Source: an uncultured Bacteroidaceae bacterium
Lineage (GTDB): Bacteria; Bacteroidota; Bacteroidia; Bacteroidales; Bacteroidaceae
Assembly (NCBI GenBank): GCA_905236065.1
Contig: CAJONZ010000065.1
Span: forward strand, 12,285-76,284
Direction of reading: 5' to 3'
Length of the DNA: 64,000 bases
Shown here: in pieces, positions 38,120-56,258 of the stretch
Position numbering within the stretch: the stretch's first letter is position 1
Layout of the letters: each line of letters begins with the position of its first letter
Notes under the pieces: generated by a model
What the model saw: the letters and a program-made list of their open reading frames with translations, nothing else
Database searches by the model: none
What the model was told of the DNA's origin: nothing
Made by a program: the position numbers and the translations under genes

Positions 38120-39163
<1,044 letters not shown>

Positions 39164-39202: not shown

Positions 39203-39239
39203 GGGGATGCATCATCACCGATGCATCCCCTCTTTTGTT
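39203..39239 (+). terminator. Terminator after gap, convergent with the end of the NRPS block
   Basis: GGGGATGCAT (39203..39212) pairs perfectly with ATGCATCCCC (39221..39230), followed by TCTTTTGTT. Confidence 0.7.
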
Positions 39240-39280: not shown

Positions 39281-42200
39281 TTACACGGTAAAATAATCAA
39301 AGCCAACGATGGTGTGAACGAAACGACGGACGTAGTCGAACGCCGTGGGTGGCCATTGAAAGCCGAAACGGTAAAGAACCTGGGTGGTATAGTCATTGTC
39401 AGACTCAATCCAGCGCATGTCGTGGCTATTGCTGAGATTGTAGGCCATCAAGGGACGGAGGAGGGTAACAAGGTCGGGATTGGACATCATTTGTTCAAGA
39501 GCCTTCTGGAAATCCTCCTTCTCCACCCGAGGAAGCTTGATACCGGCAATGGCGAAACCCGTAAGGATGTCTGCCATATACTGACGGTGGACGTTGTAGG
39601 GATGAAAAACAGTACACTCACGAGGAGTGGTTGCGAGAAGCATGATGGCATGAGCCACCTCATCGACGGGCGAGAACTCGAATACCTGACTAAGCGCTTC
39701 GTAAGGCACCATGCCAATGATAACGTAGGCACGGAGCAGGGCCAAGAAATTGTTCGTGTTGAAATTAATCTGGAACTCGCCGTCCTTCTGGCGTGCAGAT
39801 AGGTTGCCAACGCGCATAATCTTGGCATTTAGGCCTTGGTTGGCGATGGCATCGAGGACTAACTCCTCTGCCTTGTATTTGGAATAGACATATTTATTCT
39901 CGTCAATGTTTTGGCCGAGCCAAAGGTCTTGCTCCGTGAGTTTGACATCAGGACCAGGGAAACCATCGACACTGAGACCGGCAATACTGGTTGTAGAGAT
40001 ATGGATAAGACGGGAACCTGTGCGCAAACAGAAAGTGATGAGATGGCGCACAGACTCGATGTTGACCATTTCGATGTCATTGCCGGCAGAGAAGTGCTTG
40101 ACATTAGCGACGCAGTTGACAACAGTCAATTGATTGTTGAGACTATCGAAGGCTTCGGGCTTGATAACCTCGGCAGCAAAGACTTGAACGCGATTATCGA
40201 AGTGACGGAAAGCTTCGGTCTTACCAAAATAGTAGAAGTACAAGGATTTGAGTCGGCTGAAAGTCTTTTCGTCGCTCTTTGCCCGGATAGGACAGAGGAT
40301 GCGGCACTCGTAATGCAATAGCAACTCATTGAGGATGTGCATACCGAGGTAACCTGTAGCGCCTGTAAGCAATACATCGCCAATGGGCTGACGCTCGCCA
40401 TTGCGGAAAGCATCAAGAGTATTGGCTGCCAGAACCTCCCTTACTCCACATGGAAGGGAAACGACTGTACCATCATTCGCAGCGGGCAGAACGGCGGCAG
40501 CTCCTTTCCCTTGAACCCTGTCCTTTTGGGAAAGGGATACAGATTGGGGCTGTAATTTCTCTTTTGCCAAAAAGACGGCGAGAGAACGGGGAGTCTTTTG
40601 GTTGAACAAGTCGTTAAAGACAATCTGCACACCATGCTTGCCGGCCTCCACAATTACTTTGATAGCATTGAGACTGGTGCCGCCAATCTCGAAGAAGTCG
40701 TCGAGGGCACCCACTTGCTCAATGCCGAGAACCTCAGCGAAGATGTTTGCAAAAAGCTGCTCCGTTTCGCCTTCGGGAGCGACGTATTCTGTGGCACGTT
40801 TCAATTCGGGCACAGGCAGCGCCTTGCGATTAATCTTGCCGTTGGGTGTCATGGGCATGGTTTCGAGACACATGTAGGCATCAGGCACCATGAACTCAGC
40901 CAATGACGATGCAGACAGAGCAGCACGAATAGAGTCCTCACTGAGAGAAAAGCCATCAGCCACAGTATAATAAAGTACGAGATGTTCGTTGCCCATAACC
41001 TTGCGAACTTCGGCTGCTGCCTGACGGATGCCGTCTATGTTCAGTGCCTTGCTCTCGATTTCGCCGAGTTCAATGCGGAAGCCACGCAATTTCACCTGGG
41101 TATCTATGCGCCCAAGGTACTCAATCTGTCCGTCGTCGTTCCAACGGCAAAGGTCGCCCGTGTGATACATCTGGACTGGGCGCCCCCAACGGTCAGCCTC
41201 AACGAAGGGACAATCGACAAACGACTTGGCCGTGCGTTCAGGCAGTCGCCAGTAACCCCATCCCACTTGTACTCCGGCAAAGCAGAGTTCACCAGCCACC
41301 CCCTGTGGCACAAGATGTCCTGCGGTATCGACGATGAAATTCCAGTTGTTGGCAACGCTTTGGCCAATGGGAATGTTTTCCACGCGGCATCCTGGAGCAA
41401 TCCTATAATAAGAAGTGTCGTCGGTACATTCGGTAGGCCCGTAAACGTTGATTATTTCGATGCGGTCGCTAAAAACACCGTCCATTTTCTCACCACCACC
41501 GGTAATAAAGCGGATGGGCAGGTCGTCGAAGGTGTTGAGCAACAAACAAGTCATGGCTGTCGAATAGCCACCACCAGTGATGCGGTGTTCAATGAGGAAC
41601 TGACGGATGGCATTAAGATCCTTGCGGATTTCCGTCGGCATGATATGGAACGAACCGCCAAGGGTGAGCACGGGATACATGTCCTCGATGTGGGCGTCGA
41701 ACGAGAACGAACGATGGCCACTGATGCGGTCTTCGGACGTCAAATGCTCCATATCGATGACCACGGCAATGAAATTCCTCAGACCAGCCTGATGGAGCAT
41801 GGCGCCTTTCGGCTTTCCTGTGGAACCACTGGTGTAAATCATGTAAGCGAGGCCGTCAGGCTTCGACAGGTCGATGGGGACGTCCGACGAAGAACCGTCG
41901 GAAACAGTACCCTCAGCCATGAAGTCATCAATGAAGAAAGTCTTGGCTAAAGCAGTATCAAAATTCCCTTCTGCTTTTTTTGCTTCAAGTACTTCATGCG
42001 TAGTAATCAAAACCTTCGACTCGGAGTTCTCCAACATATAACTCAGACGCTCATTGGGATATTCGAAGTCAAGAGGCGTATAAGCGGCGCCAGCTTTGTG
42101 GATGGCAAGGACGGAGAGTGGAAACTCTTTGGTGCGGTCAAGCATGACGCAGACGAAATCATCGGGCTTTACACCAAAGTCGATGAGCCGATGAGCCAGT

Positions 42201-43630
42201 GCATTAGCGTAACAATCCATTTCAGCGTAAGTCAGTTGACTGTCCTTATCCACGACGGCAGGGGTATCGGGAGTCCGTTGCACCTGTTCTGTAAAGAGGT
42301 TGGCGAAAGTCTTGCTCAGATCCACGTCAATATCCTTACCCTTACCTATATGATTGATAAGATGTGCCGCTTCGTTGTCACTGACGATACTGATACTATC
42401 AATAGCATCGTCAGCATGTGCCATCATCTGCTCCATCGTGGCCTTCATTGCATCGGCCATCATGCGCATGGTTTTTCGGCTGTTCATGGCCAGGCTCGAT
42501 TCCATGCGGATGTCATAATTATCGCCCACTATGAATCTATGAGCCAGCATGTCGTAGAATACGTCGCCACGATCCTGCTGCACGAACTTACAGTGCGTAT
42601 CACCAAAGTGGTATTCCTCTTCCCAGCCGGGCAGAGCCGTAAAATTAAACGAGATTCCAGGCTGCACACCTAAGTCACGGCAGAAGTGAGAGAAGGGATA
42701 GGCCAATTGCGACAACGTGGCCTTCATTTCTGTATGGACTATAGCGATATACTCGCGCACGCTCTGCTCCTTCCGAATCTCCATCATAAAAGGAATCGTA
42801 CGCACGAACATGCCGTAAGCCTGCTTCACACGCGGATCACGACGACCATGAAAGATGGTCGTGTAGGCCACCTTCTCCTCGCGCAATAGTCGGGCAAGCA
42901 CATAGCTAAACGCTGCCTGGAATATCTGATACGGAGCAAAGCCATTTTCCTTGCACCAGTCATCCACCATTACCCGGTTGATGTAAGCAGACTCCTGCCC
43001 CATCTCGCCCACAGGATTCTCGGGCCGTACCGACAGCGTCGCCAAATCTACTCCCGCATATTTCTCTTGCATCACCGCCTTCGCCTGCTCATATTCCTTA
43101 TTGCCTAAGCAAGCAGACTCATCCTCGGCAGCCTCCAGCATTCCGTATTCCTGTACGGGAAGCGGTTTACCCTCGTATGCCAATGGCAGGTCTCGCTGTG
43201 GGAACAAGGTCAAGTAGCTTGTCCCATCGGTGACCATGTGATGAATATCGACCAACAGGTAACGCTTTTCAGGGGTGGTCACGAGCTCCACACGTATCAA
43301 CGGCTCGTCGCCCATGATATCGAATGGTCTGCAAAAGGCATGGTGGGCATAGTCTTGGAAGTCTGTCTCTGTCATCTCACGACGAACGATGGTAAGACGC
43401 TTTGTCTCATCCACATACTGCCGTGGTTCACCTTTTTCATCGATAAGGAAGCGCAAACTCAGTTCCTTGCGGGCGGCAAAAACGGTCTGCAAAGCAGCGT
43501 CCAAGCGGTTGAGGTCTATCTCGTCGTTCAATGGTACGATGCAGGGGACATTGTACTGCATGACGTGAGGAAACTTCAGACAATCGTAAAATACGCCAAG
43601 CTGAGATTGAAGCAAAGGAAAAGTAACCAT
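39281..43630 (-). CDS. Nonribosomal peptide synthetase, single module C-A-T-R
   Basis: 1449 aa.
- C domain: about nt 42326..43630, HHMVTDG at 43223..43243.
- A domain: about nt 40811..42310 (YTSGSTGKPKG, NVYGPTE, YHTGDL, GRIDTQVKLRGFRIELGEIE, NGKINRK).
- T domain: about nt 40565..40774, GGTS Ser codon at 40673..40675.
- R domain: about nt 39284..40384, TGATGYLG at 40343..40366 and YVYSK.
Motif coordinates were verified by back-translation. Confidence 0.9.
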   Translation of the reverse strand: MVTFPLLQSQLGVFYDCLKFPHVMQYNVPCIVPLNDEIDLNRLDAALQTVFAARKELSLRFLIDEKGEPRQYVDETKRLTIVRREMTETDFQDYAHHAFCRPFDIMGDEPLIRVELVTTPEKRYLLVDIHHMVTDGTSYLTLFPQRDLPLAYEGKPLPVQEYGMLEAAEDESACLGNKEYEQAKAVMQEKYAGVDLATLSVRPENPVGEMGQESAYINRVMVDDWCKENGFAPYQIFQAAFSYVLARLLREEKVAYTTIFHGRRDPRVKQAYGMFVRTIPFMMEIRKEQSVREYIAIVHTEMKATLSQLAYPFSHFCRDLGVQPGISFNFTALPGWEEEYHFGDTHCKFVQQDRGDVFYDMLAHRFIVGDNYDIRMESSLAMNSRKTMRMMADAMKATMEQMMAHADDAIDSISIVSDNEAAHLINHIGKGKDIDVDLSKTFANLFTEQVQRTPDTPAVVDKDSQLTYAEMDCYANALAHRLIDFGVKPDDFVCVMLDRTKEFPLSVLAIHKAGAAYTPLDFEYPNERLSYMLENSESKVLITTHEVLEAKKAEGNFDTALAKTFFIDDFMAEGTVSDGSSSDVPIDLSKPDGLAYMIYTSGSTGKPKGAMLHQAGLRNFIAVVIDMEHLTSEDRISGHRSFSFDAHIEDMYPVLTLGGSFHIMPTEIRKDLNAIRQFLIEHRITGGGYSTAMTCLLLNTFDDLPIRFITGGGEKMDGVFSDRIEIINVYGPTECTDDTSYYRIAPGCRVENIPIGQSVANNWNFIVDTAGHLVPQGVAGELCFAGVQVGWGYWRLPERTAKSFVDCPFVEADRWGRPVQMYHTGDLCRWNDDGQIEYLGRIDTQVKLRGFRIELGEIESKALNIDGIRQAAAEVRKVMGNEHLVLYYTVADGFSLSEDSIRAALSASSLAEFMVPDAYMCLETMPMTPNGKINRKALPVPELKRATEYVAPEGETEQLFANIFAEVLGIEQVGALDDFFEIGGTSLNAIKVIVEAGKHGVQIVFNDLFNQKTPRSLAVFLAKEKLQPQSVSLSQKDRVQGKGAAAVLPAANDGTVVSLPCGVREVLAANTLDAFRNGERQPIGDVLLTGATGYLGMHILNELLLHYECRILCPIRAKSDEKTFSRLKSLYFYYFGKTEAFRHFDNRVQVFAAEVIKPEAFDSLNNQLTVVNCVANVKHFSAGNDIEMVNIESVRHLITFCLRTGSRLIHISTTSIAGLSVDGFPGPDVKLTEQDLWLGQNIDENKYVYSKYKAEELVLDAIANQGLNAKIMRVGNLSARQKDGEFQINFNTNNFLALLRAYVIIGMVPYEALSQVFEFSPVDEVAHAIMLLATTPRECTVFHPYNVHRQYMADILTGFAIAGIKLPRVEKEDFQKALEQMMSNPDLVTLLRPLMAYNLSNSHDMRWIESDNDYTTQVLYRFGFQWPPTAFDYVRRFVHTIVGFDYFTV

Positions 43631-43651
43631 AAGCGAATCATTATTGCAATA

Positions 43652-46600
43652 TTATTCAAAGAAACCAAATCCACCAATCGCTTTCAGCATACGCTCCACA
43701 TAGTCCCAAGAGGTGGGTGAAAATGCAAAGCCAAGGCGATAAAGCACCTGCGTGGTATAGTCATTATCCCTATCCACATCGGTTGTCTTCTGTCCGTGAG
43801 CCATATCCTGATAGGCTAAAAGCGAAGCCAACTGGCGTGCTTTCTGCGGATTGTCCTTAGCGGCTTCCATCGCTTGGGCAAATTCTTCCTGTTCTACGAA
43901 CTGAATGCCATTACCCACAGTGGAAAGCCCCATGAGCACATCGCCTAGGAACTGGCTGTGAATGTTGTAGGGATGGAAGACCGTGCAGTTGGATGGCGTG
44001 GTGGCCAAAAGCACGATGGAATGGCTCACCTCATTGATGGGCGAGAACTCCACCCGCTTGTTGCGCATTGCGTATGGGCAACAACCCAGCATGTTGTAAA
44101 CCCGGATGCGCCCCATGAATGAATTGGTAGAGAAGTTGGCCTGGAACTCACCGTCGGAGGAACGGGCTGCAAGATTGCCCACACGCATAATCTTGGCTTT
44201 CAGTCCGTGATTGATAATCGCATCAAGGATGAGTCGCTCGGCCATGAACTTTGAGTAAATGTACTTGTTTCCAAGATATTGCCCCATGTATAGCCGCTGT
44301 TCGGTGAAGACTGGAGATTGGAGAGTGGCTGCACATGAATTCATCTTCGATTTTCCATCTTCAATCCACAGGCCGCGCGTACTGGCCGTAGAGATATGGA
44401 CAAGCGTGGCACCTGTCTTGATACAGAAATCCACACAGCGCTGTGCGCCGCCAATGTTCACATCCTCTATCTCCGTACCCTCAGAAAAGTGCTTGACAAT
44501 CGCAGCACAATTAAAGACCGTGGATAACGGATAGTCGATATCTGCCAACTTCTCCGTCAGGTCTTCGGTCACGTCACCAAGGATGACGTGGATGCGAGTA
44601 CCAAAAAGGGACTTGAAGGAGTCGGCAAAGTAGTAGAAGAGGAGGGTGCGCAGACGGCTCTCGGCCTTTTCCTTTGTCTTGCCACGCACCAGACAGTAGA
44701 TATGCTCTGCATCGGAATTGATCAATTCGTGCAGAATGTGAATACCCAGATATCCCGTGGCACCCGTCAGGAGCACATTACCTAACTTGCGGAGCTCACC
44801 TTTACGGAAGTTGTCGAGCGTATTCTGTTGGAGAAGGTCGTTAATGGCAGTATAGTCGAAGTCCTTCTCCGAAGGAACTGCGGACGTGGAAGACTCAGAG
44901 GGTACAGACTCGCCAGTGATGAGTTGGGCAAGCTGACGTGGAGTCGGATTGGCAAAGACATCGCCGTAGGCCACATGCAGTCCGGCTTTGTCGGCTTCAA
45001 TGATGACACGGGTTACGACCAACGAGGTACCACCCAACTCAAAGAAGTTGTCGGTAGCCCCTACCCTTTCCATCTGCAAGATGTCGGCAAAGATGTCACA
45101 GAAAGCCCGTTCGGTATCATTGCCCGGAGCCACGTATGCCGATGTGACGGCCAATTGCGGTTCGGGCAAAGCCTTCACGTCTGTCTTGCCGTTGGGGGTC
45201 ATAGGCATTTCCTTCAATTGCAAATAAGCCGTTGGCACCATGTACTGTGTCAGACTCTTGGAGATTTCAGCCTTCAATGCGTCCGGCGCAATCTCACGGT
45301 CGGCTGTGTAATAGGCACAGAGATGTTCCTTACCACCCAGTTTGCGGATGAGAATCACCACTTTCTTCATGCCTTCCACCTTCAGCATCACATTCTCTAT
45401 TTCACCCAATTCGATACGCAGGCCACGAAGTTTAATCTGATGGTCGGTACGTCCGAGTATCATGACATCTCCATCTGGCAACCACTTCGCATAGTCGCCT
45501 GACTTATAGACACGCACACCATGATAATCCACAAAGCGTTCACGGGTCATCTGGTCAAGATTATTGTAGCCACGAGCCACGCCACGGCCACCAATGTACA
45601 ATTCACCTACCACTCCTGCAGGCAACTCGTTGCCGTCGCTGTCAACCACAAACTCCTTCACGTTGAGCTGGGGCTTGCCCACAGTAACCAACTTCGCATG
45701 GGTCAGTTCCTTGTTGTTCGAGGCCACGGTAATCTCCGTCGGACCATAGCAATTGAAGATGCGGGCCTGGGTGACACTGCGCATTTTTTCCAACAGGCTT
45801 TCGCTGAACTTCTCACCACCAGCACGACATATCTTGACCTGGGAGATGGCATTGCAGAAGTCATCACTGGTGAGCCACGTCTGCCAACGGGAAGGCGTAC
45901 CCGACACCATGTTGATATGCTGTTCTTGAATGAGATGGGCCAGGTCAATCGGGTTGTTGGCTTGTTCCTCTGTAGCTACGATGAGCGTCTTGCCATTAAA
46001 ATAGGCCATACCAATGTCCTGCAAAGCTGCATCAAACGAAATGGTGGTTACGCTGAGTATGCGGTCGGCATCGGTCAGCACCCCATGGGCAAAAACGTTG
46101 GCCGGATGCCCATAGAGATAGTTGCAAATACCTTCGTGACGCAACATCACACCTTTCGGACGTCCTGTGGAGCCACTGGTATAGATTAAGTATGCGAGGT
46201 CATCGGGGGTCAGGTTCACAGAGGGTTCTGAGGACGTAGAAGAAGAAGCCAGGAGGTCTTCGACGTTGAGTACTTTCTCAGCATCGAAACCAGTGGCCTT
46301 CTCCGAGTTCTCTGTAGTGATAATATAACGTGCCTCGCTATCCTCCAAGATGAGTTTGACACGGTCTGCCGGGTATTCCGGGTCACAAGGAATATAGGCA
46401 GCCCCCGCCTTCAGCACACCGAAGAGTGCCAGGATGAGGCGGCTAGTACGCGGCAGGAGCAGGGCCACCCGGTCGCACTCCTTCACACCACGCTGATGCA
46501 GGGCGGCAGCGATGCGGTCGGTCAGTTCATCCATTTCCTGATAGGTGTATCGACCATCAATGGCCACAAGTGCCTCATGATTGGGCTGTATCTTGGCAAA

Positions 46601-49600
46601 ATGGCCGATACATTCATGGAAGAACTTGAAAGGTGCCTCACCCGTGGCCGTCTGGCGCAGGCGAGACAATTCCTCTTCCTGCTGCTTGCTTACGATAGAA
46701 AGCTGACGCACCTTGCCCTCCGGCTGTGCCATCATCCGATGGGCCACAGCCACAATACTCTCGGCCAGCGATTGTGCCAACCGTTTCGAGTACAGGGCAT
46801 CGTCGTATTGTACGACTACTCCACAAGACTCTATCTTAATGTTAATCTTGAACTTCGGTACGTTTAGTTCCAGTAATTCTTGACCTATAGGTTTCCCACC
46901 TACGGTATATTCCGACAGGACACCCACCTGATAAGCGTATGCGATGGCAGGACGGAAACCATAGTCGGAGGCAATGCGTGCAAAGGGATAGTCCTCGTGG
47001 CGCAGGGTCTCATCAAAAGTTTCACTGGTCTTCTGCAAGAACGCCCCAACCGTCACGTCCTCTACATTCAGGCCCAGGGCCAGTGTATTGACGAACATGC
47101 CCACCGTATCGGCTATCTTCAGGTTCGAGCGCCCACTGCTGACGGTGCAAAGATACACCTCGCGGTTGTTGACATAACGCGACACCACGTAGGCTGTGGC
47201 GGCAAGGAACAAGTGGGCAGGCGTTATCTCATGCTGACGGCAGAAAGCCGTAGCCTGTTCATAGTCGGGCAGACAGACTGCCTCGCCAATAAATCCCTGT
47301 TGCTCGCTTTTGGGAAGGTCTGCAGGAATCTCGCTGGCTCCTTCACACGTTTGCAACATTTCGGCAAAGAACTGCTGCGAGGCACGGAATGCTTCCCCTT
47401 CTTCAGCCCGCCGCTGGTCGGTCACGAAATCGAGGTAAGTATAGCTTTCTTTCTCCAGGGAACGGCCTTCCAGCAAATCACCAATCTGACGAATGAGCAA
47501 GTCGGCAGAACCACCGTCGAAAACCAGATGATGAACATCCATCAGCAAATGTACGCTGCACTCTGTCTTTACGACTTCAAAGCGGTAAAGTGGTGGTTGA
47601 TGCAAATTGAAGGGACGCACAAACTCGTTCTTGTAGGAGGACAATTCCTCATCCTTCATCTCCGTAACAGGTACCTCCACAGCCGTGTCGAGGGCCACCT
47701 TCTGCACGATGCCGTCGCCCTGTGTCGTGAAATACACACGCAACTCAGGATGAGCCTCCACTACACGTTTCACGGCATCAACCAGCTTGCTGGCATCCGT
47801 ACCGTCTGGATAGGACAAGAGATAAGGAATATTGTATATCGTAGAGGTAGGATTCTTCAAGCAGTCGAAATACACTCCCGTCTGAGCGTAGGAAAGCGGC
47901 GCCTCCTCTACGCTGTCCGAAGAGTCTTGACGGCTTTGTTCTTTCTTTTCCTTGATAGAGCCAAAGGAACCATCCATCATCTTTTTCAGAATTTCGTTTT
48001 CGATGCTTTGCAACGTTCCCGTCTTTACAAACGTCTTTGAATCCAGCGCCACGCCATAGCGCTTATTCACCTGCACAGCTAACTTAATGGCAGAGATGGA
48101 GGTAAGTCCGACGTAGCCCAGGACGGTCGTAATGCCGAAATCCGTGTTGCCGACAATGGCGGCGACCATGTCCTTCAGTTCCTGCTCCAACACATTCAGC
48201 GGGGCGGCAAATTCTTCACGATTCTCTCTCCCCTTCTCACTTCTTACAGGCTTCGGCAGTGCCCGCTTATTTACCTTTTGGTTCTGGTTCAGGGGGATGG
48301 CCTCAATCTGCATGGTCACGGCAGGCACCATGTAGGGCGGTTTCCTGTCAAGAATAAATTGATTGAGTTCTTCGACGTCTATCTGCTTGTCGCTGACGAT
48401 ATAGGCAGCGATGAACTTTCCGCCATTCTCCTCATCAAATGCCTGCACCGTGGCATCCTTGATGTCCGGGAACTCACGGATGACACTCTCCACTTCCTTC
48501 AGTTCGATGCGGAAGCCACGAATCTTCACCTGTCCGTCACGACGACCCACAAACTGGATGTTCCCGTCGGGCAGATAGCGCACGATGTCACCAGAACGAT
48601 AGACACGACGGTATTTTTCATTCTCCGTAAACGGATTGGTGATATACACCTCTGCCGTCTTCTCTGGACGGTTCAGATAGCCACGGCTCACCTGCGGGCC
48701 ACTAATCCAAAGTTCACCTGCTGCACCCACGGGCTGACGATGGCCCTGCGGGTCAACCACATACAGACGCATGTTGTCAAGCGGCTTGCCAATAGGAATT
48801 TCTTTCATCTTCTCCTTGACGAGGTAGGTCGTCGTAAAGATGGTACACTCCGTCGGGCCATAGCCATTGTAGAAGTTGTATTCCTTGGGAGGTGTCAGCG
48901 AAGCCAGCTTCTCACCGCCCGTGGAGAGGTGCAACAGCGAATGGTTCTCAATGCCAGTGGCAAACTGGTAAGCCACCTGCGTCGTCATGAACGAATGAGT
49001 AATACCGTTTTGCTCAAAATAATCGTTCAGAGCCACCAAGTCGAGGCGCAACTCCTCGGGAACGATGTAAAGCGTGGCACCAGACGTAAGGGCAGGATAC
49101 ATGTCCATCATACAGGCATCAAAGCCATAGCTGGCGTATGCAGCGACCCGATGCTCAGGTCTCAGGTCATAGCGACGCTGATACCAGTGGCAGAAAGCCA
49201 CCAGGTTTCCATGCGTCAGCTGACAGCCCTTCGGCACCCCTGTCGAACCAGAAGTGTAGAGAAGGATGAAAAGATTCTCCGGCTTCGGTTCCGTAGGTTG
49301 CTGTGCCACGGCAACACAACCTTCAATATCCTTCGTCAGCAAGACCTCCCCCTTGTACTCATCCACGATGGGGCGCAGTTCTTCATCCGCAATCAACAGT
49401 TTTGCTCCTGCATCCTGCATCATAAAGTTCAGGCGCTCTTTCGGATAGGTAGGGTCAAGCGGTTGGTAGGCACAACCGGCCTTGAGCACTCCGAGCGACG
49501 CAATGGCCATCCACTCACAGCGGGGAATAAGTACCGAAACTACGTCTTCGGCTCCAAGCCCCTTACCGGCAATGTAGCTTGCGATGCGGTCACTAAGGTC

Positions 49601-50992
49601 GTCCACGTCGGCGTATGTATAATGCCTATCCTTATAGACCACGGCTACGTTCTGAGCTGTAGCCTTGGCTTGGCGGCGGAACAACGAAACGATGGTCTGT
49701 GTATCGTCGTAAGGAACATCCGTCTGGTTAAACGCATCGAGTTTCTCCACCTGCGACGCCGTGGAAAGCTCCACATCACGCAAATATTCCTGGGTGAGGA
49801 AATCGTTCAGCACGGCCTCGTAACTCTCCAGGAACTGTTCAATCAGGTGTTGGGAATACTCATTGCTGTTGTATTCTGCCTTTACATGATATTTGCCACC
49901 CAAGATGAAAGTTTTGATATAAAGCGAGGCGGCCAGCGTACTGTTACAAAGGCGCACGGTCTTCATCGGTTTTCCGCACAGTTGTTCCTGGGAAAACAGA
50001 ATGCCGTGCCAAGCAAACATGGAATTGCTTTGCAGGCCAAGGTCGTTGACGACATCGCTGAAAGAATATACTTCATGTTTCCGGCAACCGCTCATCTGCT
50101 CTTGCCCCGCCTTCAGAAAGTCAATCACTTTCGTGTCACTATCGAACTTGGCATAGACGGGCAGCGTCTTCACGGTCATTCCGACGGAATGGAGGAAACG
50201 CTTGTCTGAACGTCCATTGTAAACCGTCGTGAAAAGCGACTCCTGCTCGTTATTGTATTTTGCAAGCAGATAGGCGTATGCCATTGTGAAGAAATTGCTC
50301 TTGAAAACGCCTTTCTCCTTGCAAAACGCTTCCACCTGCTCCATTGCGACATGCAACGTGCGTAGCATACTGTCCTCCGCGTGTTCTTCAATCTCCAAGT
50401 CGGGCATCAGTTGTGTGAACGTATCGCCACAGTCAAAGTTCTGGGCATACCATGCCTTGCCCTCGTCGAAAGCCTCCGTCTTGCGCAGTTCTGCCTCTGT
50501 CAGGGCTACCTCAGCCATCGTAAGGGACTCTGGGGAAAGAGTCTCACCACGATAAGCGGCATCCACGTCAGCCAGTATCACTTTCAGCGTCGTACCGTCA
50601 GCAATGATGTGGTGGGGATCCAGAAAGAAATAGAAATGTTCCTTGTCACGCAGCAGACGAATATGAAACAGGCGGTCGCCATAGATATTGAAAGGGACTA
50701 TCAGCTGCTGTTTCACTTTCTCTATGTCGTCTATCTCCTCCACTGCCAATGTAAACGTCTCGGTGTCGTCAATCGTCTGCATGGGTTCACCCTCGTCGTT
50801 CAGTTCAATTCTCGTAAACAACGTGGGATGAGCCTGAACGGCAGTTTCAATAGCCATTCGCAGCCGTTCCGCATCAAGACTTCCGTCCAATATATATAAA
50901 TAAGGTACATTATAACAAGGTTCCCCTGCATGTGCTACACACTCTACATAGAGACCATATTGCGATTTTGATAAAGGTGTTGCCGTCTTCAT
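43652..50992 (-). CDS. Nonribosomal peptide synthetase, two modules C-A-T-C-A-T-R
   Basis: 2446 aa.
- C1: about nt 49703..50992, HHIIADG at 50594..50614.
- A1: about nt 48248..49687 (YTSGSTGVPKG, NGYGPTE).
- T1: about nt 47978..48190, atypical GLTSIS with Ser codon at 48098..48100.
- C2: about nt 46628..47905, HHLVFDG at 47513..47533.
- A2: about nt 45158..46621 (YTSGSTGRPKG, NCYGPTE, NGKTDVK).
- T2: about nt 44909..45121, GGTS Ser codon at 45023..45025.
- R: nt 43655..44785, TGATGYLG at 44744..44767 and YIYSK. Confidence 0.9.
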   Translation of the reverse strand: MKTATPLSKSQYGLYVECVAHAGEPCYNVPYLYILDGSLDAERLRMAIETAVQAHPTLFTRIELNDEGEPMQTIDDTETFTLAVEEIDDIEKVKQQLIVPFNIYGDRLFHIRLLRDKEHFYFFLDPHHIIADGTTLKVILADVDAAYRGETLSPESLTMAEVALTEAELRKTEAFDEGKAWYAQNFDCGDTFTQLMPDLEIEEHAEDSMLRTLHVAMEQVEAFCKEKGVFKSNFFTMAYAYLLAKYNNEQESLFTTVYNGRSDKRFLHSVGMTVKTLPVYAKFDSDTKVIDFLKAGQEQMSGCRKHEVYSFSDVVNDLGLQSNSMFAWHGILFSQEQLCGKPMKTVRLCNSTLAASLYIKTFILGGKYHVKAEYNSNEYSQHLIEQFLESYEAVLNDFLTQEYLRDVELSTASQVEKLDAFNQTDVPYDDTQTIVSLFRRQAKATAQNVAVVYKDRHYTYADVDDLSDRIASYIAGKGLGAEDVVSVLIPRCEWMAIASLGVLKAGCAYQPLDPTYPKERLNFMMQDAGAKLLIADEELRPIVDEYKGEVLLTKDIEGCVAVAQQPTEPKPENLFILLYTSGSTGVPKGCQLTHGNLVAFCHWYQRRYDLRPEHRVAAYASYGFDACMMDMYPALTSGATLYIVPEELRLDLVALNDYFEQNGITHSFMTTQVAYQFATGIENHSLLHLSTGGEKLASLTPPKEYNFYNGYGPTECTIFTTTYLVKEKMKEIPIGKPLDNMRLYVVDPQGHRQPVGAAGELWISGPQVSRGYLNRPEKTAEVYITNPFTENEKYRRVYRSGDIVRYLPDGNIQFVGRRDGQVKIRGFRIELKEVESVIREFPDIKDATVQAFDEENGGKFIAAYIVSDKQIDVEELNQFILDRKPPYMVPAVTMQIEAIPLNQNQKVNKRALPKPVRSEKGRENREEFAAPLNVLEQELKDMVAAIVGNTDFGITTVLGYVGLTSISAIKLAVQVNKRYGVALDSKTFVKTGTLQSIENEILKKMMDGSFGSIKEKKEQSRQDSSDSVEEAPLSYAQTGVYFDCLKNPTSTIYNIPYLLSYPDGTDASKLVDAVKRVVEAHPELRVYFTTQGDGIVQKVALDTAVEVPVTEMKDEELSSYKNEFVRPFNLHQPPLYRFEVVKTECSVHLLMDVHHLVFDGGSADLLIRQIGDLLEGRSLEKESYTYLDFVTDQRRAEEGEAFRASQQFFAEMLQTCEGASEIPADLPKSEQQGFIGEAVCLPDYEQATAFCRQHEITPAHLFLAATAYVVSRYVNNREVYLCTVSSGRSNLKIADTVGMFVNTLALGLNVEDVTVGAFLQKTSETFDETLRHEDYPFARIASDYGFRPAIAYAYQVGVLSEYTVGGKPIGQELLELNVPKFKINIKIESCGVVVQYDDALYSKRLAQSLAESIVAVAHRMMAQPEGKVRQLSIVSKQQEEELSRLRQTATGEAPFKFFHECIGHFAKIQPNHEALVAIDGRYTYQEMDELTDRIAAALHQRGVKECDRVALLLPRTSRLILALFGVLKAGAAYIPCDPEYPADRVKLILEDSEARYIITTENSEKATGFDAEKVLNVEDLLASSSTSSEPSVNLTPDDLAYLIYTSGSTGRPKGVMLRHEGICNYLYGHPANVFAHGVLTDADRILSVTTISFDAALQDIGMAYFNGKTLIVATEEQANNPIDLAHLIQEQHINMVSGTPSRWQTWLTSDDFCNAISQVKICRAGGEKFSESLLEKMRSVTQARIFNCYGPTEITVASNNKELTHAKLVTVGKPQLNVKEFVVDSDGNELPAGVVGELYIGGRGVARGYNNLDQMTRERFVDYHGVRVYKSGDYAKWLPDGDVMILGRTDHQIKLRGLRIELGEIENVMLKVEGMKKVVILIRKLGGKEHLCAYYTADREIAPDALKAEISKSLTQYMVPTAYLQLKEMPMTPNGKTDVKALPEPQLAVTSAYVAPGNDTERAFCDIFADILQMERVGATDNFFELGGTSLVVTRVIIEADKAGLHVAYGDVFANPTPRQLAQLITGESVPSESSTSAVPSEKDFDYTAINDLLQQNTLDNFRKGELRKLGNVLLTGATGYLGIHILHELINSDAEHIYCLVRGKTKEKAESRLRTLLFYYFADSFKSLFGTRIHVILGDVTEDLTEKLADIDYPLSTVFNCAAIVKHFSEGTEIEDVNIGGAQRCVDFCIKTGATLVHISTASTRGLWIEDGKSKMNSCAATLQSPVFTEQRLYMGQYLGNKYIYSKFMAERLILDAIINHGLKAKIMRVGNLAARSSDGEFQANFSTNSFMGRIRVYNMLGCCPYAMRNKRVEFSPINEVSHSIVLLATTPSNCTVFHPYNIHSQFLGDVLMGLSTVGNGIQFVEQEEFAQAMEAAKDNPQKARQLASLLAYQDMAHGQKTTDVDRDNDYTTQVLYRLGFAFSPTSWDYVERMLKAIGGFGFFE

Positions 50993-51051
50993 GGTTTTTC
51001 CGATTTTATGATTTTGCGTTTATAGGTTCAAATTATAAATGATACCTGTTT

Positions 51052-52428
51052 TTACCATTTCGTTGAAAAGATTTTAGGAGAGAAGTTCACAGAGAACCAT
51101 CCCCATCGAAGGTTACCGTCACCACGATCACGTTTCAGTCTTTCCATGGATTCGGAACCTGTCATATAAGTGAAACCCGCCGAGAAACTAACCAGGTCTT
51201 GCAGTTTATAAGATGCCGTCACCTCTATCTCATGGCCAAGCGTCATGTCCATGTCTTCAAGTTTCGTTGCCATGGCCAGATAATGGTAGGCCACACCGAT
51301 ATGCAGATTCTTGACAGGCTTGACGAAAGCACCGACAAAGGCATTCTGCAAACCCGGAGAGAAAGTATTGACGAAATTGCTGAGGTAGAAAAAGTCCATG
51401 GCACCATAGAACTTATGCTGAGAACCATAGACTGGCAGGAAATATTTTATTTTTTCATGCTTGGGCATTCCTAACGTTCCCGGTTTGGGCACAGGCATGT
51501 AGTCGTCACCACTCAGGTAGTCAAAACCCACTTGGAAACCAAACATGTCCCGGGGGGTCCAGGTAGCCAGGCCGCTGGCCATCCAAGCATCAATTTCAGC
51601 CCCTTCCTCGTTCCGGCCCATCTGCCGATAGTAGGAACCCTCTACCGACCAACGCTTGGGACGGAAGGAAATATATCCACCCACCACCTGCTGGTATTCT
51701 ATATGGGGAGCATAATCATTCTTTCCGCCTTCATAGCCCGCTTGCATACCCACATTCATTCCAAGCAACGACACACCCAGAGGCACCTTGGGCACATCGT
51801 AGTGATACCAAAGCGTATGCATCGTCTTGTAAGGCTGCACCCCGTTTTCCTTATTATAATAGGTACCGCCATCGACATTATTCGAATTTTGGTTATAGGC
51901 CAGAATGGCGTGAGCCTTATGGCCATGTCCCTCATAGCCCAGTTTGAACACATCGTGCGCAAGGGCGGTCATGGCCCAGTCGTTGGGGCCAATGATGCGC
52001 TCGTCGTCGTAGGCCAGAGCCTGACGACCCATTTGCATGAAAAGGCCCGTCTTGTCCGAAAGCTTTGCCCAAGCCTCAGAAAGGCTGAGGGCATTGTTTC
52101 CTTTCATGCCCCAGACACCCAAACTCTGTGCCACGACTTTGGCCTCCACGGCAAAACGGTTCAACGGTTTCTCCGCCGAAGCGAAATTCTTCCGAAAGTC
52201 CACGGTCAATCGTGCACGGTTCATCAAGAACTTAGCCTCGTTCTCCTTTTCCGAATCCCCATCACCTTCCCTGATCATTCCGCCGTTCCGAAGCTCACCG
52301 TGAGTCAGCATTTGCAAACCAATGTCAAATTGGTTTTCCTTATCTGCCTGCTGTCCCCACGCCGTAATTGGTAAAAGCAATACAACGGCCAAGCAACAGG
52401 GACGTATAAAAAACCTGTTGTGTTTCAT
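51052..52428 (-). CDS. Alginate-export (AlgE-like) family outer-membrane beta-barrel
   Basis: 458 aa with a signal peptide (LLLPITAWGQQ). MGRQALAYDDERIIGPNDWAMTALAHDVFKL resembles the GRQ...RliG..dW...r.fDg signature of the alginate-export family. Amphipathic strands throughout; aromatic C-terminus STKW. Confidence 0.6.
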   Translation of the reverse strand: MKHNRFFIRPCCLAVVLLLPITAWGQQADKENQFDIGLQMLTHGELRNGGMIREGDGDSEKENEAKFLMNRARLTVDFRKNFASAEKPLNRFAVEAKVVAQSLGVWGMKGNNALSLSEAWAKLSDKTGLFMQMGRQALAYDDERIIGPNDWAMTALAHDVFKLGYEGHGHKAHAILAYNQNSNNVDGGTYYNKENGVQPYKTMHTLWYHYDVPKVPLGVSLLGMNVGMQAGYEGGKNDYAPHIEYQQVVGGYISFRPKRWSVEGSYYRQMGRNEEGAEIDAWMASGLATWTPRDMFGFQVGFDYLSGDDYMPVPKPGTLGMPKHEKIKYFLPVYGSQHKFYGAMDFFYLSNFVNTFSPGLQNAFVGAFVKPVKNLHIGVAYHYLAMATKLEDMDMTLGHEIEVTASYKLQDLVSFSAGFTYMTGSESMERLKRDRGDGNLRWGWFSVNFSPKIFSTKW

Positions 52429-52456
52429 GGTAAATGGTATGTGTTTTCATTCAGAC

Positions 52457-52759
52457 CTATTCAAAATCAAACAGACTAATAAATCCTGTCAGTTTGAACA
52501 CGTCCTTGATGTCATCGTTCAGGTTGCGCATCACCACCCGGCTGCCTCCAGCCTTGGCACCCTTCATAATGCTGATTAAAATACGCAAACCGTTAGAAGC
52601 AATGTATTCCAGCTTCTCACAGTCAATAATGACATCCTTACCATCGGTCTTGTAAAGAGGCTGTAAAGTCTTCTCTGCCTCCAAAGCAGCCACCGTGTCC
52701 ATTTCTCCCTCAAGGCTGACAAAAAATTTGCCTTCTCTTTCTTCAATCGTTGTTTTCAT
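52457..52759 (-). CDS. STAS-domain anti-sigma-factor antagonist-like protein (RsbV/SpoIIAA type)
   Basis: 100 aa. VIIDCEKLEYIASNGLRILISI carries the conserved phosphorylatable Ser context (SNGL). Confidence 0.8.
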   Translation of the reverse strand: MKTTIEEREGKFFVSLEGEMDTVAALEAEKTLQPLYKTDGKDVIIDCEKLEYIASNGLRILISIMKGAKAGGSRVVMRNLNDDIKDVFKLTGFISLFDFE

Positions 52760-52802
52760 AATATATTATAAATTAAAAGTTTTCACAGTTCCCGCTCCAA
52801 AA

Positions 52803-52869
52803 TCCGGATGGCGTCCCTCCCCTAAGGGGGGAGGTTAGGAGGGGGCTTTCATTCTTCACTCTTCATTCT
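52803..52869. repeat. REP-like dispersed intergenic element, copy B, with a GAATGAAGA-type tail
   Basis: TCCGGATGGCGTCCCTCCCCTAAGGGGGGAGGTTAGGAGGGGG followed by CTTTCATTCTTCACTCTTCATTCTTCATTC. It contains the internal palindrome CCTCCCCTAAGGGGGGAGG. Confidence 0.7.
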
Positions 52870-55074
52870 TCATTCTCCAATCCTCTTCCTCAACGTCAAT
52901 ATATTCTTACCATCCACCCGCTCATAATTGATGCTGTCCATCAAATTCCTGACAAGGTGAATGCCTAATCCTCCTATCGGTCTCTCTTCCACAGACAATG
53001 TAGTATCTACCTGAAGCGCCTTCGTCGGGTCGAAAGGCACACCCGAATCAACAATGATAAACTTCAGCCAATGCCTGTCAGACTTGGCAAAGAGGGTGAT
53101 ACTGCCTTCCACTCCGATGGGATAGGCATAGTTCATCACATTGACCACAGCCTCTTCCACTGCCAATCGGACATTGCCCGCCAACTTTGCCTCCATATCC
53201 AGTTGAGTGGTCACATCCTTGATAAAGGTGTTCAACTGCTCTATCTTACGCAGGTCGTTCGTCAACGTCAGCGTCTCCGACAGCACATCCTGCTCCGTTT
53301 CCGGCGAGTAGAGTATGGCCAGCATGGTCAAGTCGTCACTTTGCTCTGCGTTTTCCACAAACGAATCCACAGCACCAGTCATCGTCTGCAACAGAAGATG
53401 AGGACGATTTTCAGGACTGCATGGCTGTAGCACCCCCTTGACCCTTTCCTCTCCAAACTGCTTATGCTGAAGATTCTTTGCCTCCGTCAGTCCGTCGGTG
53501 TATAAAAACAGCAGTGAGCCTGGCCGAAGCATGTATTCTTGCGCCTCATATTTCACATCCTCAAAGATGCCGACAGGCAGGTTGGGCTTTGCATCCAACA
53601 CTTCAGCCGTTCCCTTGCCCTGGGACATCCAGTCGCGGACAATCAACGGACGGTCATGACCGGCATTGCAATAGCGCAGTCGTCCCGTAGGCAAGTCGAG
53701 CACACCTAAGAAGAGCGTGACAAACATATTCGACTCGTTGCCATGACAGGAAGTCGCATTGATATCCTGCATCATGCGGGCAGGATTGTTTTCATGGGCC
53801 GAGGCAGAACGGAACAAAGAATGCGTTACCGCCATCAGCATGGCCGACGGAACACCTTTGCCACTCACGTCGCCGATGCAGAAAAACAGTTTCTCGTCGC
53901 GCAGGAAGAAGTCGAAAAGGTCGCCACCTACCTCACGGGCAGGCACCAACGAACCGGCCACACCGACGTCGCTCCGCATGATACTGTTCTCCCGTGGCAA
54001 CATCTGCGTCTGGATATCCTTTGCAATGCGTAGTTCGCTGCTAATCCGCTCCTGCTCCATCTCCGTCTCCTGCAACCGGCGCTGACTCCGTGCAAACAAC
54101 TGGATAATGAAGCCTAACACCACAAGGCCCGCCAAGGCCATCAACATGATATTGCCCCGCATCTGGTCCAGCTTGCCGAACGCTTCGTCGTCATAGCACA
54201 CGACCACCATCAGCCAACGGGGACTCTTCTTCTTCACAGCATAATACACATGGCCCGCATCCCCTCTCTCATCAACGAACGGAAAGCCTGTCACACGCCC
54301 ATTAACCCTTTCCTCCTTCACCACCGTGCTGTCATTCACCATGTTGACAATCTGCTGAACCAACTGCGGACTGGCCAAACTGTCTGCCGGACCGGCAATC
54401 AACTCGCCCGAATCTCCCATGACCAACGTGAAGGAAGAAGGGTAACGATGGTTCATGTTCACCACCTCGCCAATCCAGTCAATGTCGAGGTCAACAGCCA
54501 GCACGGCCACGGGCGTACCGCTTTCATCCTTTATGGGCATAGCATACGTGGTGACGACAGTCTGTGCGCCCTCTGCATCCAAATAGGCCGGCGACCAGTT
54601 GGTGATTTCGCCTTTCATGGCCAACTGATAGGGAAGCATTTGTGTATAGTCGTGCTTCTCTGAACCGATTTGCACCAAACAGGCATCATCCTCCGTCTGA
54701 CGGGCGTAGGGTTCATAAAGCCGCCCTTTCAATGGGTAATAATAAGGTTTGAAAGCAAGGGCAGCCCCGATGATGTTGTCGTGCTCATCCTTCACCATGT
54801 TGTAAAGCAACTGGTTCAAGTGTTCAGGGTCATCCAAGTTGGCCTCCACATGCCACTGTTGGTTACAGACAGCCACTTCTGCCATCGACATGATTTCCTG
54901 GATGCGAAGCGCCGAGGTAACCAACTCGAAAAAAGCACTCTTTTCCAGTTCCCTCTCCATCAGCTCCCGCGTATATTGGTAGCGGACGAGAGAGATAACC
55001 TCCAACAGCACAGCTGCCAGGATGACGATAACGAGCATGGCTCGTTTCCTTAACCACTCGAAAAGCTTTTTCAT
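52870..55074 (-). CDS. Membrane sensor: Cache-like extracytoplasmic domain, PP2C (SpoIIE/RsbU) phosphatase and RsbW-like HATPase kinase, fused
   Basis: 734 aa. Two TM helices flank a domain of about 270 aa with Cache-like features. PP2C motifs FCIGDVSGKGVPSAMLMA, LFLYTDGLTEA and SDDLTMLAI. The C-terminal 130 aa carry AVEEAVVNVMNYAY (N box), IVDSGVPFDP and IGGLGIHLVRNLMD (G boxes). A CAAAGGTA -7 box lies at 55095. Confidence 0.8.
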   Translation of the reverse strand: MKKLFEWLRKRAMLVIVILAAVLLEVISLVRYQYTRELMERELEKSAFFELVTSALRIQEIMSMAEVAVCNQQWHVEANLDDPEHLNQLLYNMVKDEHDNIIGAALAFKPYYYPLKGRLYEPYARQTEDDACLVQIGSEKHDYTQMLPYQLAMKGEITNWSPAYLDAEGAQTVVTTYAMPIKDESGTPVAVLAVDLDIDWIGEVVNMNHRYPSSFTLVMGDSGELIAGPADSLASPQLVQQIVNMVNDSTVVKEERVNGRVTGFPFVDERGDAGHVYYAVKKKSPRWLMVVVCYDDEAFGKLDQMRGNIMLMALAGLVVLGFIIQLFARSQRRLQETEMEQERISSELRIAKDIQTQMLPRENSIMRSDVGVAGSLVPAREVGGDLFDFFLRDEKLFFCIGDVSGKGVPSAMLMAVTHSLFRSASAHENNPARMMQDINATSCHGNESNMFVTLFLGVLDLPTGRLRYCNAGHDRPLIVRDWMSQGKGTAEVLDAKPNLPVGIFEDVKYEAQEYMLRPGSLLFLYTDGLTEAKNLQHKQFGEERVKGVLQPCSPENRPHLLLQTMTGAVDSFVENAEQSDDLTMLAILYSPETEQDVLSETLTLTNDLRKIEQLNTFIKDVTTQLDMEAKLAGNVRLAVEEAVVNVMNYAYPIGVEGSITLFAKSDRHWLKFIIVDSGVPFDPTKALQVDTTLSVEERPIGGLGIHLVRNLMDSINYERVDGKNILTLRKRIGE

Positions 55075-55094
55075 GTATCAAATTTATATGGGCA

Positions 55095-55102
55095 CAAAGG
55101 TA
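55095..55102 (-). promoter_or_regulatory. -7 box TACCTTTG at the head of the sensor/STAS/barrel/NRPS block
   Basis: CAAAGGTA on the plus strand, 21 nt upstream of start 55074. Confidence 0.5.
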
Positions 55103-55632: not shown

Positions 55633-55701
55633 TTTTCGCTTTTCACTTTTTTTACAATCATCCGCAATCATCCGACAACGCCCCAAAGGGGCAATGAGCC
55701 A

Positions 55702-56220: not shown

Positions 56221-56250
56221 AATTTTCTCTTTTTTTTCAATATCTCCGTG

Positions 56251-56258
56251 CAAAGTTA
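56251..56258 (-). promoter_or_regulatory. -7 box TAACTTTG (DMP19-like gene / smpB)
   Basis: CAAAGTTA on the plus strand, 31 nt upstream of start 56220. Confidence 0.45.

Follow-up and report, generated by a model that had tools for sequence, protein, structure and literature searches.

The DNA analysed here is a stretch of 64,000 nt from an uncultured Bacteroidaceae bacterium (contig CAJONZ010000065.1; called the window below), whose minus strand carries a block of five genes encoding a membrane-bound sensor, a STAS protein, an outer-membrane barrel and two nonribosomal peptide synthetases (NRPSs), designated NRPS-A and NRPS-B. Sequence comparison shows genes one to four to be the window's version of a cassette found in ruminant-gut Prevotellaceae. 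We consider it probable that these four genes form a conserved, signal-controlled biosynthetic cassette and that NRPS-B is a separate enzyme which stands in the place usually taken by genes for a MatE exporter and a phosphopantetheinyl transferase (PPTase). An earlier note, made from the letters of the window alone, had read all five genes as one co-directional block. The coordinates of the open reading frames (ORFs) agree with its description of five minus-strand genes arranged head to tail with successive gaps of 110, 28, 59 and 21 nt, and the linkage of sensor, STAS, barrel and NRPS-A proved to be kept, in several orders, across dozens of species; NRPS-B falls outside the cassette. The five ORFs are:

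52870-55074, minus strand, sensor, 734 aa
52457-52759, minus strand, STAS protein, 100 aa
51052-52428, minus strand, barrel, 458 aa
43652-50992, minus strand, NRPS-A, 2446 aa
39281-43630, minus strand, NRPS-B, 1449 aa

The evidence for the cassette comes from comparison with relatives. The barrel has more than 2000 homologues, and a scan with one genome per species found a relative in 401 genomes; the locus counts given here refer to the best 80 of them. Loci were annotated by tblastn and blastp with the window proteins and by our own ORF calling, and all relatives are metagenome-assembled genomes (MAGs). The best 80 all come from the rumen, omasum, abomasum or reticulum of cattle, sheep, goat, yak, buffalo or deer and are labelled Prevotella, Prevotellaceae or Bacteroidaceae. 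The order sensor-STAS-barrel-NRPS was found in 51 of the 80 loci, and since it recurs there with differing flanking genes, the first four genes are conserved as a unit, beyond chance. The NRPS gene is followed by a MatE gene in 39 of the 51, and three of them have no MatE in the approximately 2.5 kb available downstream. Three of the 80 loci have barrel and NRPS without an adjacent upstream sensor, and in two the arrangement is not decidable. Of the 36 loci in which the sequence extends far enough, 14 have a gene for an Sfp-type PPTase on the same strand as MatE and 6-244 nt beyond it; the PPTase is the sixth cassette gene (at ~19950-21160) in L023, L025, L040, L041, L043, L048, L052, L063, L064, L067, L071, L081 and L082. 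On these sequence data, the usual cassette is thus composed of sensor, STAS protein, barrel, an NRPS of the domain order C-A-T-C-A-T-R (condensation, adenylation and thiolation twice, terminal reductase), a MatE exporter and often an Sfp-type PPTase.

NRPS-A is 68-79% identical to the cassette NRPSs of 42 barrel-linked loci and 53-57% identical to those of seven others; with the loci L174-L179 added to the 42, the overall range is 68-81%. The reverse look-up, anchored on NRPS-A, gave the same picture, as all three orthologues looked up (79-81% identity) have sensor and STAS genes directly upstream. With S for sensor, T for STAS, B for barrel, N for NRPS and M for MatE, locus L177 reads S-T-B-N-M, L176 reads S-T-B-M-N-M and L174 reads S-T-N-M; L174 lies at the same chromosomal site as L177 and differs from it by the absence of the barrel only. 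Related NRPSs also have sensor and STAS genes as neighbours in no fewer than eight further gene orders, on one strand or the other. The examples below, L174 excepted, are related bimodular NRPSs from a metagenome scan:

S-T-M-N: L129, L141
S-T-N-M: L155, L174
N-M-S-T: L130
N-M-N-S: L093
N-N-M with T-S on the opposite strand: L137
T-S on the opposite strand, then N: L149

That the genes stay adjacent although their order has been shuffled speaks for a functional connection between sensor-STAS and the NRPS.

The domain calls made in the earlier note were reproduced by Pfam in all five proteins. The sensor joins an MCP-like PDC/dCache region (PF22673/PF02743) to a SpoIIE domain (PF07228, E 2.7e-48) and a HATPase_c_2 domain (PF13581, E 3.4e-25). 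Its layout comprises a first transmembrane segment (aa ~12-31), a double-PDC/dCache region (aa ~32-305), a second transmembrane segment (aa ~306-330), a PP2C phosphatase (aa 393-587) and an RsbW-type GHKL serine kinase (aa 605-730). Because the two hydrophobic segments bracket the Cache region, this region lies in the periplasm and the sensor passes the inner membrane twice. The relevant positions in the window are:

54160-54981, minus strand, Cache/PDC ligand-binding region of the sensor (Pfam PF22673/PF02743)
53314-53898, minus strand, PP2C (SpoIIE-family) phosphatase domain of the sensor (Pfam and motifs)
52885-53262, minus strand, HATPase_c_2 (RsbW/SpoIIAB-like) kinase domain of the sensor (Pfam/NCBIfam and motifs)
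52595-52597, minus strand, codon of Ser55 of the STAS protein (motif YIAS-N-GL, two residues before the conserved Gly)

Among 65 sensor homologues, the PP2C motifs GGD, DxSGKG, TDG and DD are conserved in 100%, and so are the N, G1 and G2 boxes of the kinase (core residues of E..N, DxG and GGLG). Since the RsbW equivalog models of NCBIfam score far below their cut-offs (42 bits for the sensor kinase, cut-off 145), the kinase is a relative of RsbW and not its orthologue. The Cache region is the most variable part of the sensor, with a mean identity to relatives of 37% vs 58-60% for the PP2C and kinase domains. Its sole clear relative in the PDB, found by sequence search, is the sensor domain of a Shewanella kinase (3LIC), with no ligand in the match. 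Fusions of PP2C and kinase form a large family of 9175 representatives (one per 50%-identity cluster) at E<=1e-30, which are joined to several N-terminal sensor types. A natural kinase-less form of the sensor (Cache-PP2C only, ~590 aa) forms clusters of its own (L031, L038, L079, L087; P0399, P0402, P0405) and is over-represented among the loci which have no NRPS.

The STAS protein consists of a single domain (Pfam STAS, E 2.3e-14) and exceeds the cut-off of the NCBIfam model TIGR00377 'anti-sigma factor antagonist' (69 bits, cut-off 53). It is presumed to be the substrate of both the sensor kinase and the sensor phosphatase. Ser55 is conserved in 100% of 68 distinct homologues, and we take its position to be that of the phospho-serine of SpoIIAA (Ser58) and RsbV (Ser56). 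At none of the more than 60 loci examined is a sigma factor linked to the cassette.

NRPS-A has two Condensation, two AMP-binding and two PP-binding domains and a terminal NAD_binding_4 domain in the order C-A-T-C-A-T-R. Its motifs are HHxxxDG at aa 127 and 1154, YGPTE at 711 and 1749, the T-domain GGTS at 1987-1990, and the R-domain GATGYLG at 2077 together with YxxxK. The first T domain has GLTS, which is unusual, in place of GGxS; Pfam still assigns two PP-binding stretches. The R domains of the two NRPSs match PF07993 with E values of 5e-35 and 1.5e-29 and carry GATGYLG plus YIYSK or YVYSK. According to an alignment to a GrsA segment, the specificity code of the first A domain (A1) is DAMQSGGIFK, with three positions variable among orthologues (DAMQSG[VGL][IV][FL]K), and that of the second (A2) is DAQLRGCVAK, invariant in 109 of 110 orthologues. 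In the PDB, the N-terminal C domains are matched in sequence by regular elongation C domains such as TycC6, Txo1/2 and LgrA; the pairwise identities among the three C domains of NRPS-A and NRPS-B are all ~25%, and these data do not separate a starter from an elongation type. An (acyl)peptide aldehyde, the product proposed in the earlier note, is inferred for NRPS-A and is reasonable in view of the domain order and the intact motifs; the part of that proposal which concerned export by the barrel is held with low confidence (see below).

NRPS-B has the Pfam order C-A-T-R (Condensation, AMP-binding, PP-binding, NAD_binding_4), and its core motifs are intact (HHxxxDG, YGPTE, the T-domain serine, GATGYLG and YxxxK). 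Its R domain matches the thioester reductase model TIGR01746 with an E value of 7.8e-41 and 140.5 bits, which is under the model cut-off of 213. NRPS-B is 35% identical to module 2 plus R of NRPS-A, and its origin as a recent duplicate of that module was rejected for this reason. Its specificity code, DAELTGVDDK in the GrsA-based alignment, is invariant in 111 of 111 orthologues and contains three acidic pocket residues, which suggests that the substrate may be a basic amino acid. The family comprises ~110 clusters (at 90% identity) which are 76-82% identical to NRPS-B, and its hosts (L091-L121, L164-L173; 76-83% identity) are ruminant MAGs labelled Prevotella, Bacteroidaceae or Muribaculaceae. 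NRPS-A similarly has orthologues of 78-81% identity in more than 100 clusters (at 90% identity). The statement that NRPS loci are uncommon in Bacteroidales therefore fails for rumen Prevotellaceae, which is in agreement with the finding that three phyla, one of them Bacteroidota, account for 96% of the NRPS clusters of the rumen (PMC8241843).

When a metagenome scan was anchored on NRPS-B, 10 of 11 well-flanked orthologues (at least 3 kb of sequence on both sides) proved to stand alone: sensor, STAS, barrel, MatE and a further NRPS were all absent from their vicinity. Non-solitary cases are L172 (S-T-NRPSB-barrel), L167 (S-T-NRPSB) and L116 (NRPSB-barrel). Conversely, none of the 54 barrel-linked NRPS loci of relatives has a second NRPS. 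The five genes are thus not one conserved unit: NRPS-B is commonly found without sensor, STAS and barrel, which is part of what the earlier note had named as refuting its reading of the NRPS pair. In the window, NRPS-B occupies the usual place of MatE and PPTase, and by its distribution in these sequences it is an independent add-on outside the conserved cassette. A bimodular NRPS gene followed directly by an orthologue of NRPS-B is known from L090, L108 and L112, with 16-nt gaps in L108 and L112. A 449-aa gene between the two NRPSs of L090 was considered as a barrel (hhalign probability 0.2%) or MatE and rejected; it is a weak relative of AMP-binding proteins. A fused counterpart is P0358 (3493 aa; L180/L181, 8001-18482), in which modules 1-2 of NRPS-A (68% identity) are followed by an NRPS-B-like C-A-T-R part (62%). 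The same trimodular line is split in L135, L146 and L153 into C-A-T-C-A-T without R and C-A-T-R. Whether fused or split, these trimodular synthetases are accompanied by an MFS transporter and lack a sensor, as was also seen for two larger (tri- and tetramodular) relatives.

The barrel matches Pfam Alginate_exp (PF13372) weakly, at 34.3 bits, while passing the gathering cut-off of 25.2. It has a signal peptide, probably cleaved before Gln26, and a C-terminal Trp. Its sequence profile had no match in the PDB, and only the fold search was informative. The AlphaFold2 model has a predicted local distance difference test score of 71 and a predicted template-modelling (TM) score of 0.70, and its 15 best Foldseek matches are AlgE entries (E 1.7e-14 to 4.5e-12; top TM scores 0.57-0.67). 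The 18-strand OprD/Occ channels follow close behind; the two families together span E values of 1e-14 to 1e-11 and TM scores of 0.55-0.68. Because AlgE and OprD/Occ both match closely, the fold cannot separate an exporter from an uptake channel. At loci with Pfam-annotated neighbours, no alginate or polysaccharide genes and no AlgK-type partner were found; the other loci were compared with the cassette proteins only. The barrel is located beside NRPSs without a nearby sensor in L034, L073, L116, L119 and L132. The term dedicated channel, used for it in the earlier note, does not suit a protein that stands alone in 14 of the 80 loci and is missing from L174, a cassette otherwise identical to L177. 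With low confidence, we favour the view that the barrel exports the NRPS product. The stand-alone barrel homologues of L013, L022 and L039 share a conserved run downstream, which consists of genes for an M3 oligopeptidase, a DUF4847 protein, a dCMP deaminase and an S41 peptidase; the M3 and S41 neighbours hint at a role of some family members in general peptide traffic.

The presence of the cassette in dozens of uncultured Prevotella-like species of the rumen suggests the signal-controlled making of small reactive peptides, which may proceed as follows. A periplasmic ligand would shift the sensor between its kinase and phosphatase states and so set the phosphorylation of Ser55 of the STAS protein. 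Since no sigma factor is linked to the cassette, the STAS protein is probably a downstream effector, as SypA is for SypE, and would switch production or export on via a further target. NRPS-A would build a dipeptide, probably N-acylated via the N-terminal C domain, the second residue of which would be selected by the strictly conserved A2 pocket, and the product would be released as an aldehyde. In relatives, this product may cross the inner membrane via MatE and the outer membrane via the barrel. NRPS-B most likely makes an (acyl)amino aldehyde of its own as a one-module enzyme; it would be co-transcribed with the cassette yet be no member of it.

Several observations weigh against this interpretation. 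Sensor, STAS and barrel occur without an NRPS in nine of the 80 loci, sensor and barrel without STAS or NRPS in one (L079), and the barrel alone in 14, and a paralogous subfamily of bimodular NRPSs has MatE but no sensor in five of six well-flanked loci. In distance-matrix correlations computed on 33 complete cassettes, the highest values were obtained for sensor-STAS (r=0.71), sensor-barrel (r=0.60) and STAS-barrel (r=0.48), followed by barrel-MatE (r=0.45), NRPS-MatE (r=0.38), barrel-NRPS (r=0.37), sensor-NRPS (r=0.23), sensor-MatE (r=0.20) and STAS-MatE (r=0.18), and STAS-NRPS was not significant (r=0.07). Sensor, STAS and barrel thus track one another (r=0.48-0.71) and the NRPS tracks them poorly, which points to two linked, exchangeable sub-modules. 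The specificity codes rest on an alignment to a GrsA segment and are provisional. The window itself has no MatE gene of the cassette type in the block, the only MatE of the 64 kb being 24% identical (7712-9127), and no homologue of the cassette PPTase (best tblastn E 0.4), so the window's cassette either relies on genes located outside it or may be defective. Alternatively, two unrelated units might happen to lie side by side, with sensor-STAS-barrel as an envelope sensing or uptake module with an output of its own and NRPS(-MatE-PPTase) as a separate biosynthetic unit that frequently ends up beside it without a regulatory connection. The NRPS-free sets in nine or ten of the 80 loci, the 14 solitary barrels and the weak co-variation with the NRPS would be explained in this way, as would the absence of an NRPS from L010, the closest relative (62% identity) of the sensor-STAS-barrel set of the window, and the membership of the sensor in a large general fusion family (the 9175 representatives mentioned above). 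We nevertheless hold such a chance assembly to be improbable, as sensor and STAS genes lie beside these NRPSs even where the barrel is missing, in at least eight orders and on both strands, were present at all three NRPS-A orthologues looked up, and remain in place in L174 and L177, which differ at one chromosomal site by the barrel alone. About three stray sensor paralogues were counted in ~1 Mb of non-cassette flanks, and the chance of adjacency was roughly estimated at <2% per NRPS. Moreover, PPTase remnants point to loss of the NRPS and not to an ancestral NRPS-free state: L054 has the order S-T-B-PPTase (PPTase at 7558-8037) and in L079 the PPTase gene adjoins the barrel gene, so that at least some of the NRPS-less loci look like remnants left after an NRPS-MatE deletion. 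Sensors missing a domain are also more frequent in NRPS-less loci (4/11) than in loci with an NRPS (2/50; Fisher p=0.008), but as an argument for decay this is weak because most of these sensors are of the natural kinase-less ~590-aa form.

A substrate-specific uptake channel of the OprD/Occ type, admitting the sensor ligand, peptides or nutrients while the NRPS product leaves otherwise, would fit the fold of the barrel nearly as well as AlgE does, and it would account for the closer co-variation of the barrel with the sensor (r=0.60, compared with r=0.37 for the NRPS), its retention with sensor-STAS when the NRPS is absent, the barrel-less cassette L174 and the M3 and S41 peptidase genes next to the stand-alone barrels of L013, L022 and L039. 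The presence of the barrel beside the five sensor-less NRPSs named above and its co-variation with MatE (r=0.45) speak against this, and we regard uptake as a serious but lesser possibility. As to the two synthetases, the dipeptidyl group on the second T domain of NRPS-A might be handed over in trans to the NRPS-B C domain, which would give a tripeptide aldehyde with the NRPS-A R domain bypassed or idle. The fused P0358 (L180, L181), the split lines of L135, L146 and L153, the recurrence of a bimodular NRPS followed by an NRPS-B orthologue in L108, L112 and L090, and the gap of only 21 nt in the window all speak for this. Such a three-module line is nonetheless improbable: the R domain of NRPS-A is complete (GATGYLG, YxxxK), orthologues lacking a second NRPS share 78-81% identity with NRPS-A, the C domain of the NRPS-B orthologues (76-83%) that stand alone in 10 of 11 loci must have another donor, and no docking elements were identified on the two NRPSs. 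A more specific version of the signal-controlled cassette would make sensor and STAS a non-transcriptional gate, in which the unphosphorylated STAS protein binds the NRPS or the exporter directly and switches aldehyde production or release on a periplasmic cue; we put this forward as a speculation that is rather unlikely in this precise form. Its stronger form, autoinduction by an exported product that comes back in through the barrel and serves as the Cache ligand, is argued against by the high variability of the Cache region beside an invariant A2 code.

N-acylated members of the reductase-ended NRPSs of gut bacteria have the domain order C-A-T-C-A-T-R. NRPS-A resembles this group as a short two-module NRPS of a gut anaerobe that ends with a thioester reductase and has a predicted reactive C-terminal aldehyde. 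In a comparison made by description, it differs from the group in its Gram-negative host from the rumen Prevotellaceae and in the added Cache-PP2C-kinase sensor, STAS protein, barrel, MatE and PPTase. Short gut NRPSs with a terminal reductase are reported to make dipeptide aldehydes or pyrazinones (Guo et al. 2017; ruminopeptin rup cluster of Ruminococcus bromii, Schneider & Balskus 2018; both as summarised in PMC12327764). The best-scoring NCBIfam model for both NRPSs is that of AusA, the aureusimine synthetase of Staphylococcus aureus (NF047350), which likewise ends with T-R and the product class of which is a dipeptide aldehyde cyclising to a pyrazinone. However, the scores of 1145 bits (NRPS-A) and 616 bits (NRPS-B) are well under the equivalog cut-off of 2500, and AusA begins with an A domain whereas both NRPSs of the window begin with a C domain.

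The signalling genes share the PP2C phosphatase, the GHKL serine kinase and a STAS protein with a conserved phospho-serine position with RsbU/RsbV/RsbW and SpoIIE/SpoIIAA/SpoIIAB of Bacillus. In contrast to partner switching in Bacillus, phosphatase and kinase share one membrane-anchored polypeptide, and no cognate sigma factor is linked in the more than 60 loci. Bacteroidota are not known to possess sigma factors of the SigB/SigF type. The closest working analogue of the signalling pair is SypE/SypA of Vibrio fischeri, in which a fused RsbW-type kinase/PP2C acts on a single-domain STAS protein (Ser56) encoded inside the syp biosynthetic locus; SypA is the downstream effector and acts below transcription, with no sigma factor involved (PMC10120452). 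The two systems have in common a kinase and a PP2C on one polypeptide, a single-domain STAS protein (Ser55 in our case), a location within a locus for a secreted product and the absence of a sigma factor. Unlike the sensor described here, SypE is cytoplasmic with the order kinase-REC-PP2C and serves a polysaccharide product; in the window, the input is a periplasmic Cache region, the order is PP2C-kinase and the product is that of an NRPS. The barrel shares the 18-strand monomeric fold with AlgE and OprD/Occ of Pseudomonas aeruginosa, but the sequence identity is ~11%, and the cassette contains neither alginate genes nor a partner of the AlgK/AlgX type.

Expression in the rumen has been reported for Prevotella NRPS clusters, and for some of them it differs with feed efficiency (PMC8241843); surveys of rumen biosynthetic gene clusters (BGCs) count Prevotella NRPS clusters without describing them at the gene level (PMC8241843; PMC12918008). 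According to a phylum-wide survey of Bacteroidetes, anaerobic and pathogenic species carry a lower BGC load than the free-living aerobic classes (PMC9248904). Literature on partner switching, STAS proteins or anti-sigma antagonists in connection with NRPSs, and on Prevotella in connection with peptide aldehydes, yielded no description of the present arrangement; this is consistent with the earlier note, which knew of no system wiring an RsbU/V/W-style module to an NRPS and a channel. We rate the arrangement as a peptide-aldehyde-type NRPS cluster with a SypE/SypA-like phospho-switch.

Prevotellaceae dominate the rumen, and their secondary metabolism is known only in the form of antiSMASH counts. 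The cassette defined here is concrete and widespread, being present in no fewer than 51 species-level genomes and in metagenomic clusters that number in the hundreds. In it, a small reductase-terminated NRPS comes together with a membrane sensor, a phospho-switch, an exporter, an outer-membrane channel and a PPTase of its own. Should the product prove to be a peptide aldehyde like those of the gut Firmicutes, it would be a candidate inhibitor of proteases, produced on cue by one of the rumen's main proteolytic groups, with a bearing on the breakdown of protein in the rumen and on feed efficiency. Besides SypE/SypA, the cassette also provides another independent example of a fused kinase/phosphatase and a presumed STAS effector in a biosynthetic locus with no sigma factor, and its conserved neighbours narrow the search for the STAS target. 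A non-transcriptional gate, if it exists, would be a new output class of partner switching and the first such signal-gated NRPS in Bacteroidota. The analysis also brought out NRPS-B, a one-module C-A-T-R enzyme with an invariant acidic pocket and ~80% identity across many ruminant MAGs.

As to transcription signals, the single consensus -7 box reported ahead of the sensor gene was found again, and a second match to TAnnTTTG, TAAATTTG, absent from the earlier note, lies at 55079-55086, 4 nt before the sensor ATG. None of the four internal gaps of the five-gene block contains TAnnTTTG; the other four minus-strand matches within the block (53721, 47546, 47148 and 43043) are all intragenic. Across the 64-kb window, 43 matches were observed and 27 expected, and none of 100 shuffles reached 43, an enrichment as expected for a Bacteroidota genome. 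The strong terminator formerly assigned to the end of the block is an 11-bp G+C-rich hairpin; because its T-run is present on the plus strand only, it suits the convergent GAPDH gene (38135-39163, plus strand) better than NRPS-B as an intrinsic terminator. The features around and beyond the block are:

55095-55102, minus strand, Bacteroidota-type -7 box TACCTTTG, 20 nt 5' of the sensor ATG
39203-39230, between the convergent NRPS-B and GAPDH genes, 11-bp G+C-rich hairpin with the T-run on the plus strand only
55159-55686, minus strand, smpB, 84 nt upstream of the sensor gene
36161-37105, minus strand, sigma-70 family gene (regions 1.2, 2, 3 and 4), 2 kb beyond NRPS-B
34079-35404, C11 clostripain-family peptidase gene, flanked by two ORFs without Pfam match (33146-34054 and 35453-36064)
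15214-18240, C10 peptidase gene with an N-terminal Spi-inhibitor (I69) domain
3719-5854, M6 peptidase gene

Since smpB is located on the same strand 84 nt upstream of the sensor gene, the co-directional run comprises six genes; smpB is no conserved neighbour of the cassette in relatives. The sigma-70 gene, which probably encodes the housekeeping sigma factor, was considered as a partner of the RsbW-like domain and rejected, as it is linked to the cassette in no relative; it adjoins mscL (37263-37724). The M6, C10 and C11 peptidases, which had been connected with the NRPS product, are encoded by real genes, but these are 4-47 kb away and are not conserved neighbours in relatives, and the idea that the peptidases belong to the system was rejected for lack of conserved linkage.

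The Rfam scan of the whole window at gathering thresholds revealed no riboswitch or other RNA family. The gap between the sensor and STAS genes (52760-52872, minus strand) is unusually long, the corresponding gap being 20-50 nt in most relatives. It contains four tandem GAATGAA-like heptamers across the sensor stop codon, followed by a 7-bp G+C hairpin (CCUCCCC/GGGGAGG) without a U-tail; the fold energy of the 110-nt gap is not significant (z=-1.46). A 389-aa ORF without Pfam match (55390-56559, plus strand) overlaps the 5' part of the opposite-strand smpB ORF by ~300 nt, so that probably one of the start codons is wrong or the 389-aa ORF is spurious. The GC content of the window drops from ~0.53 to 0.44-0.48 between 30 and 40 kb.

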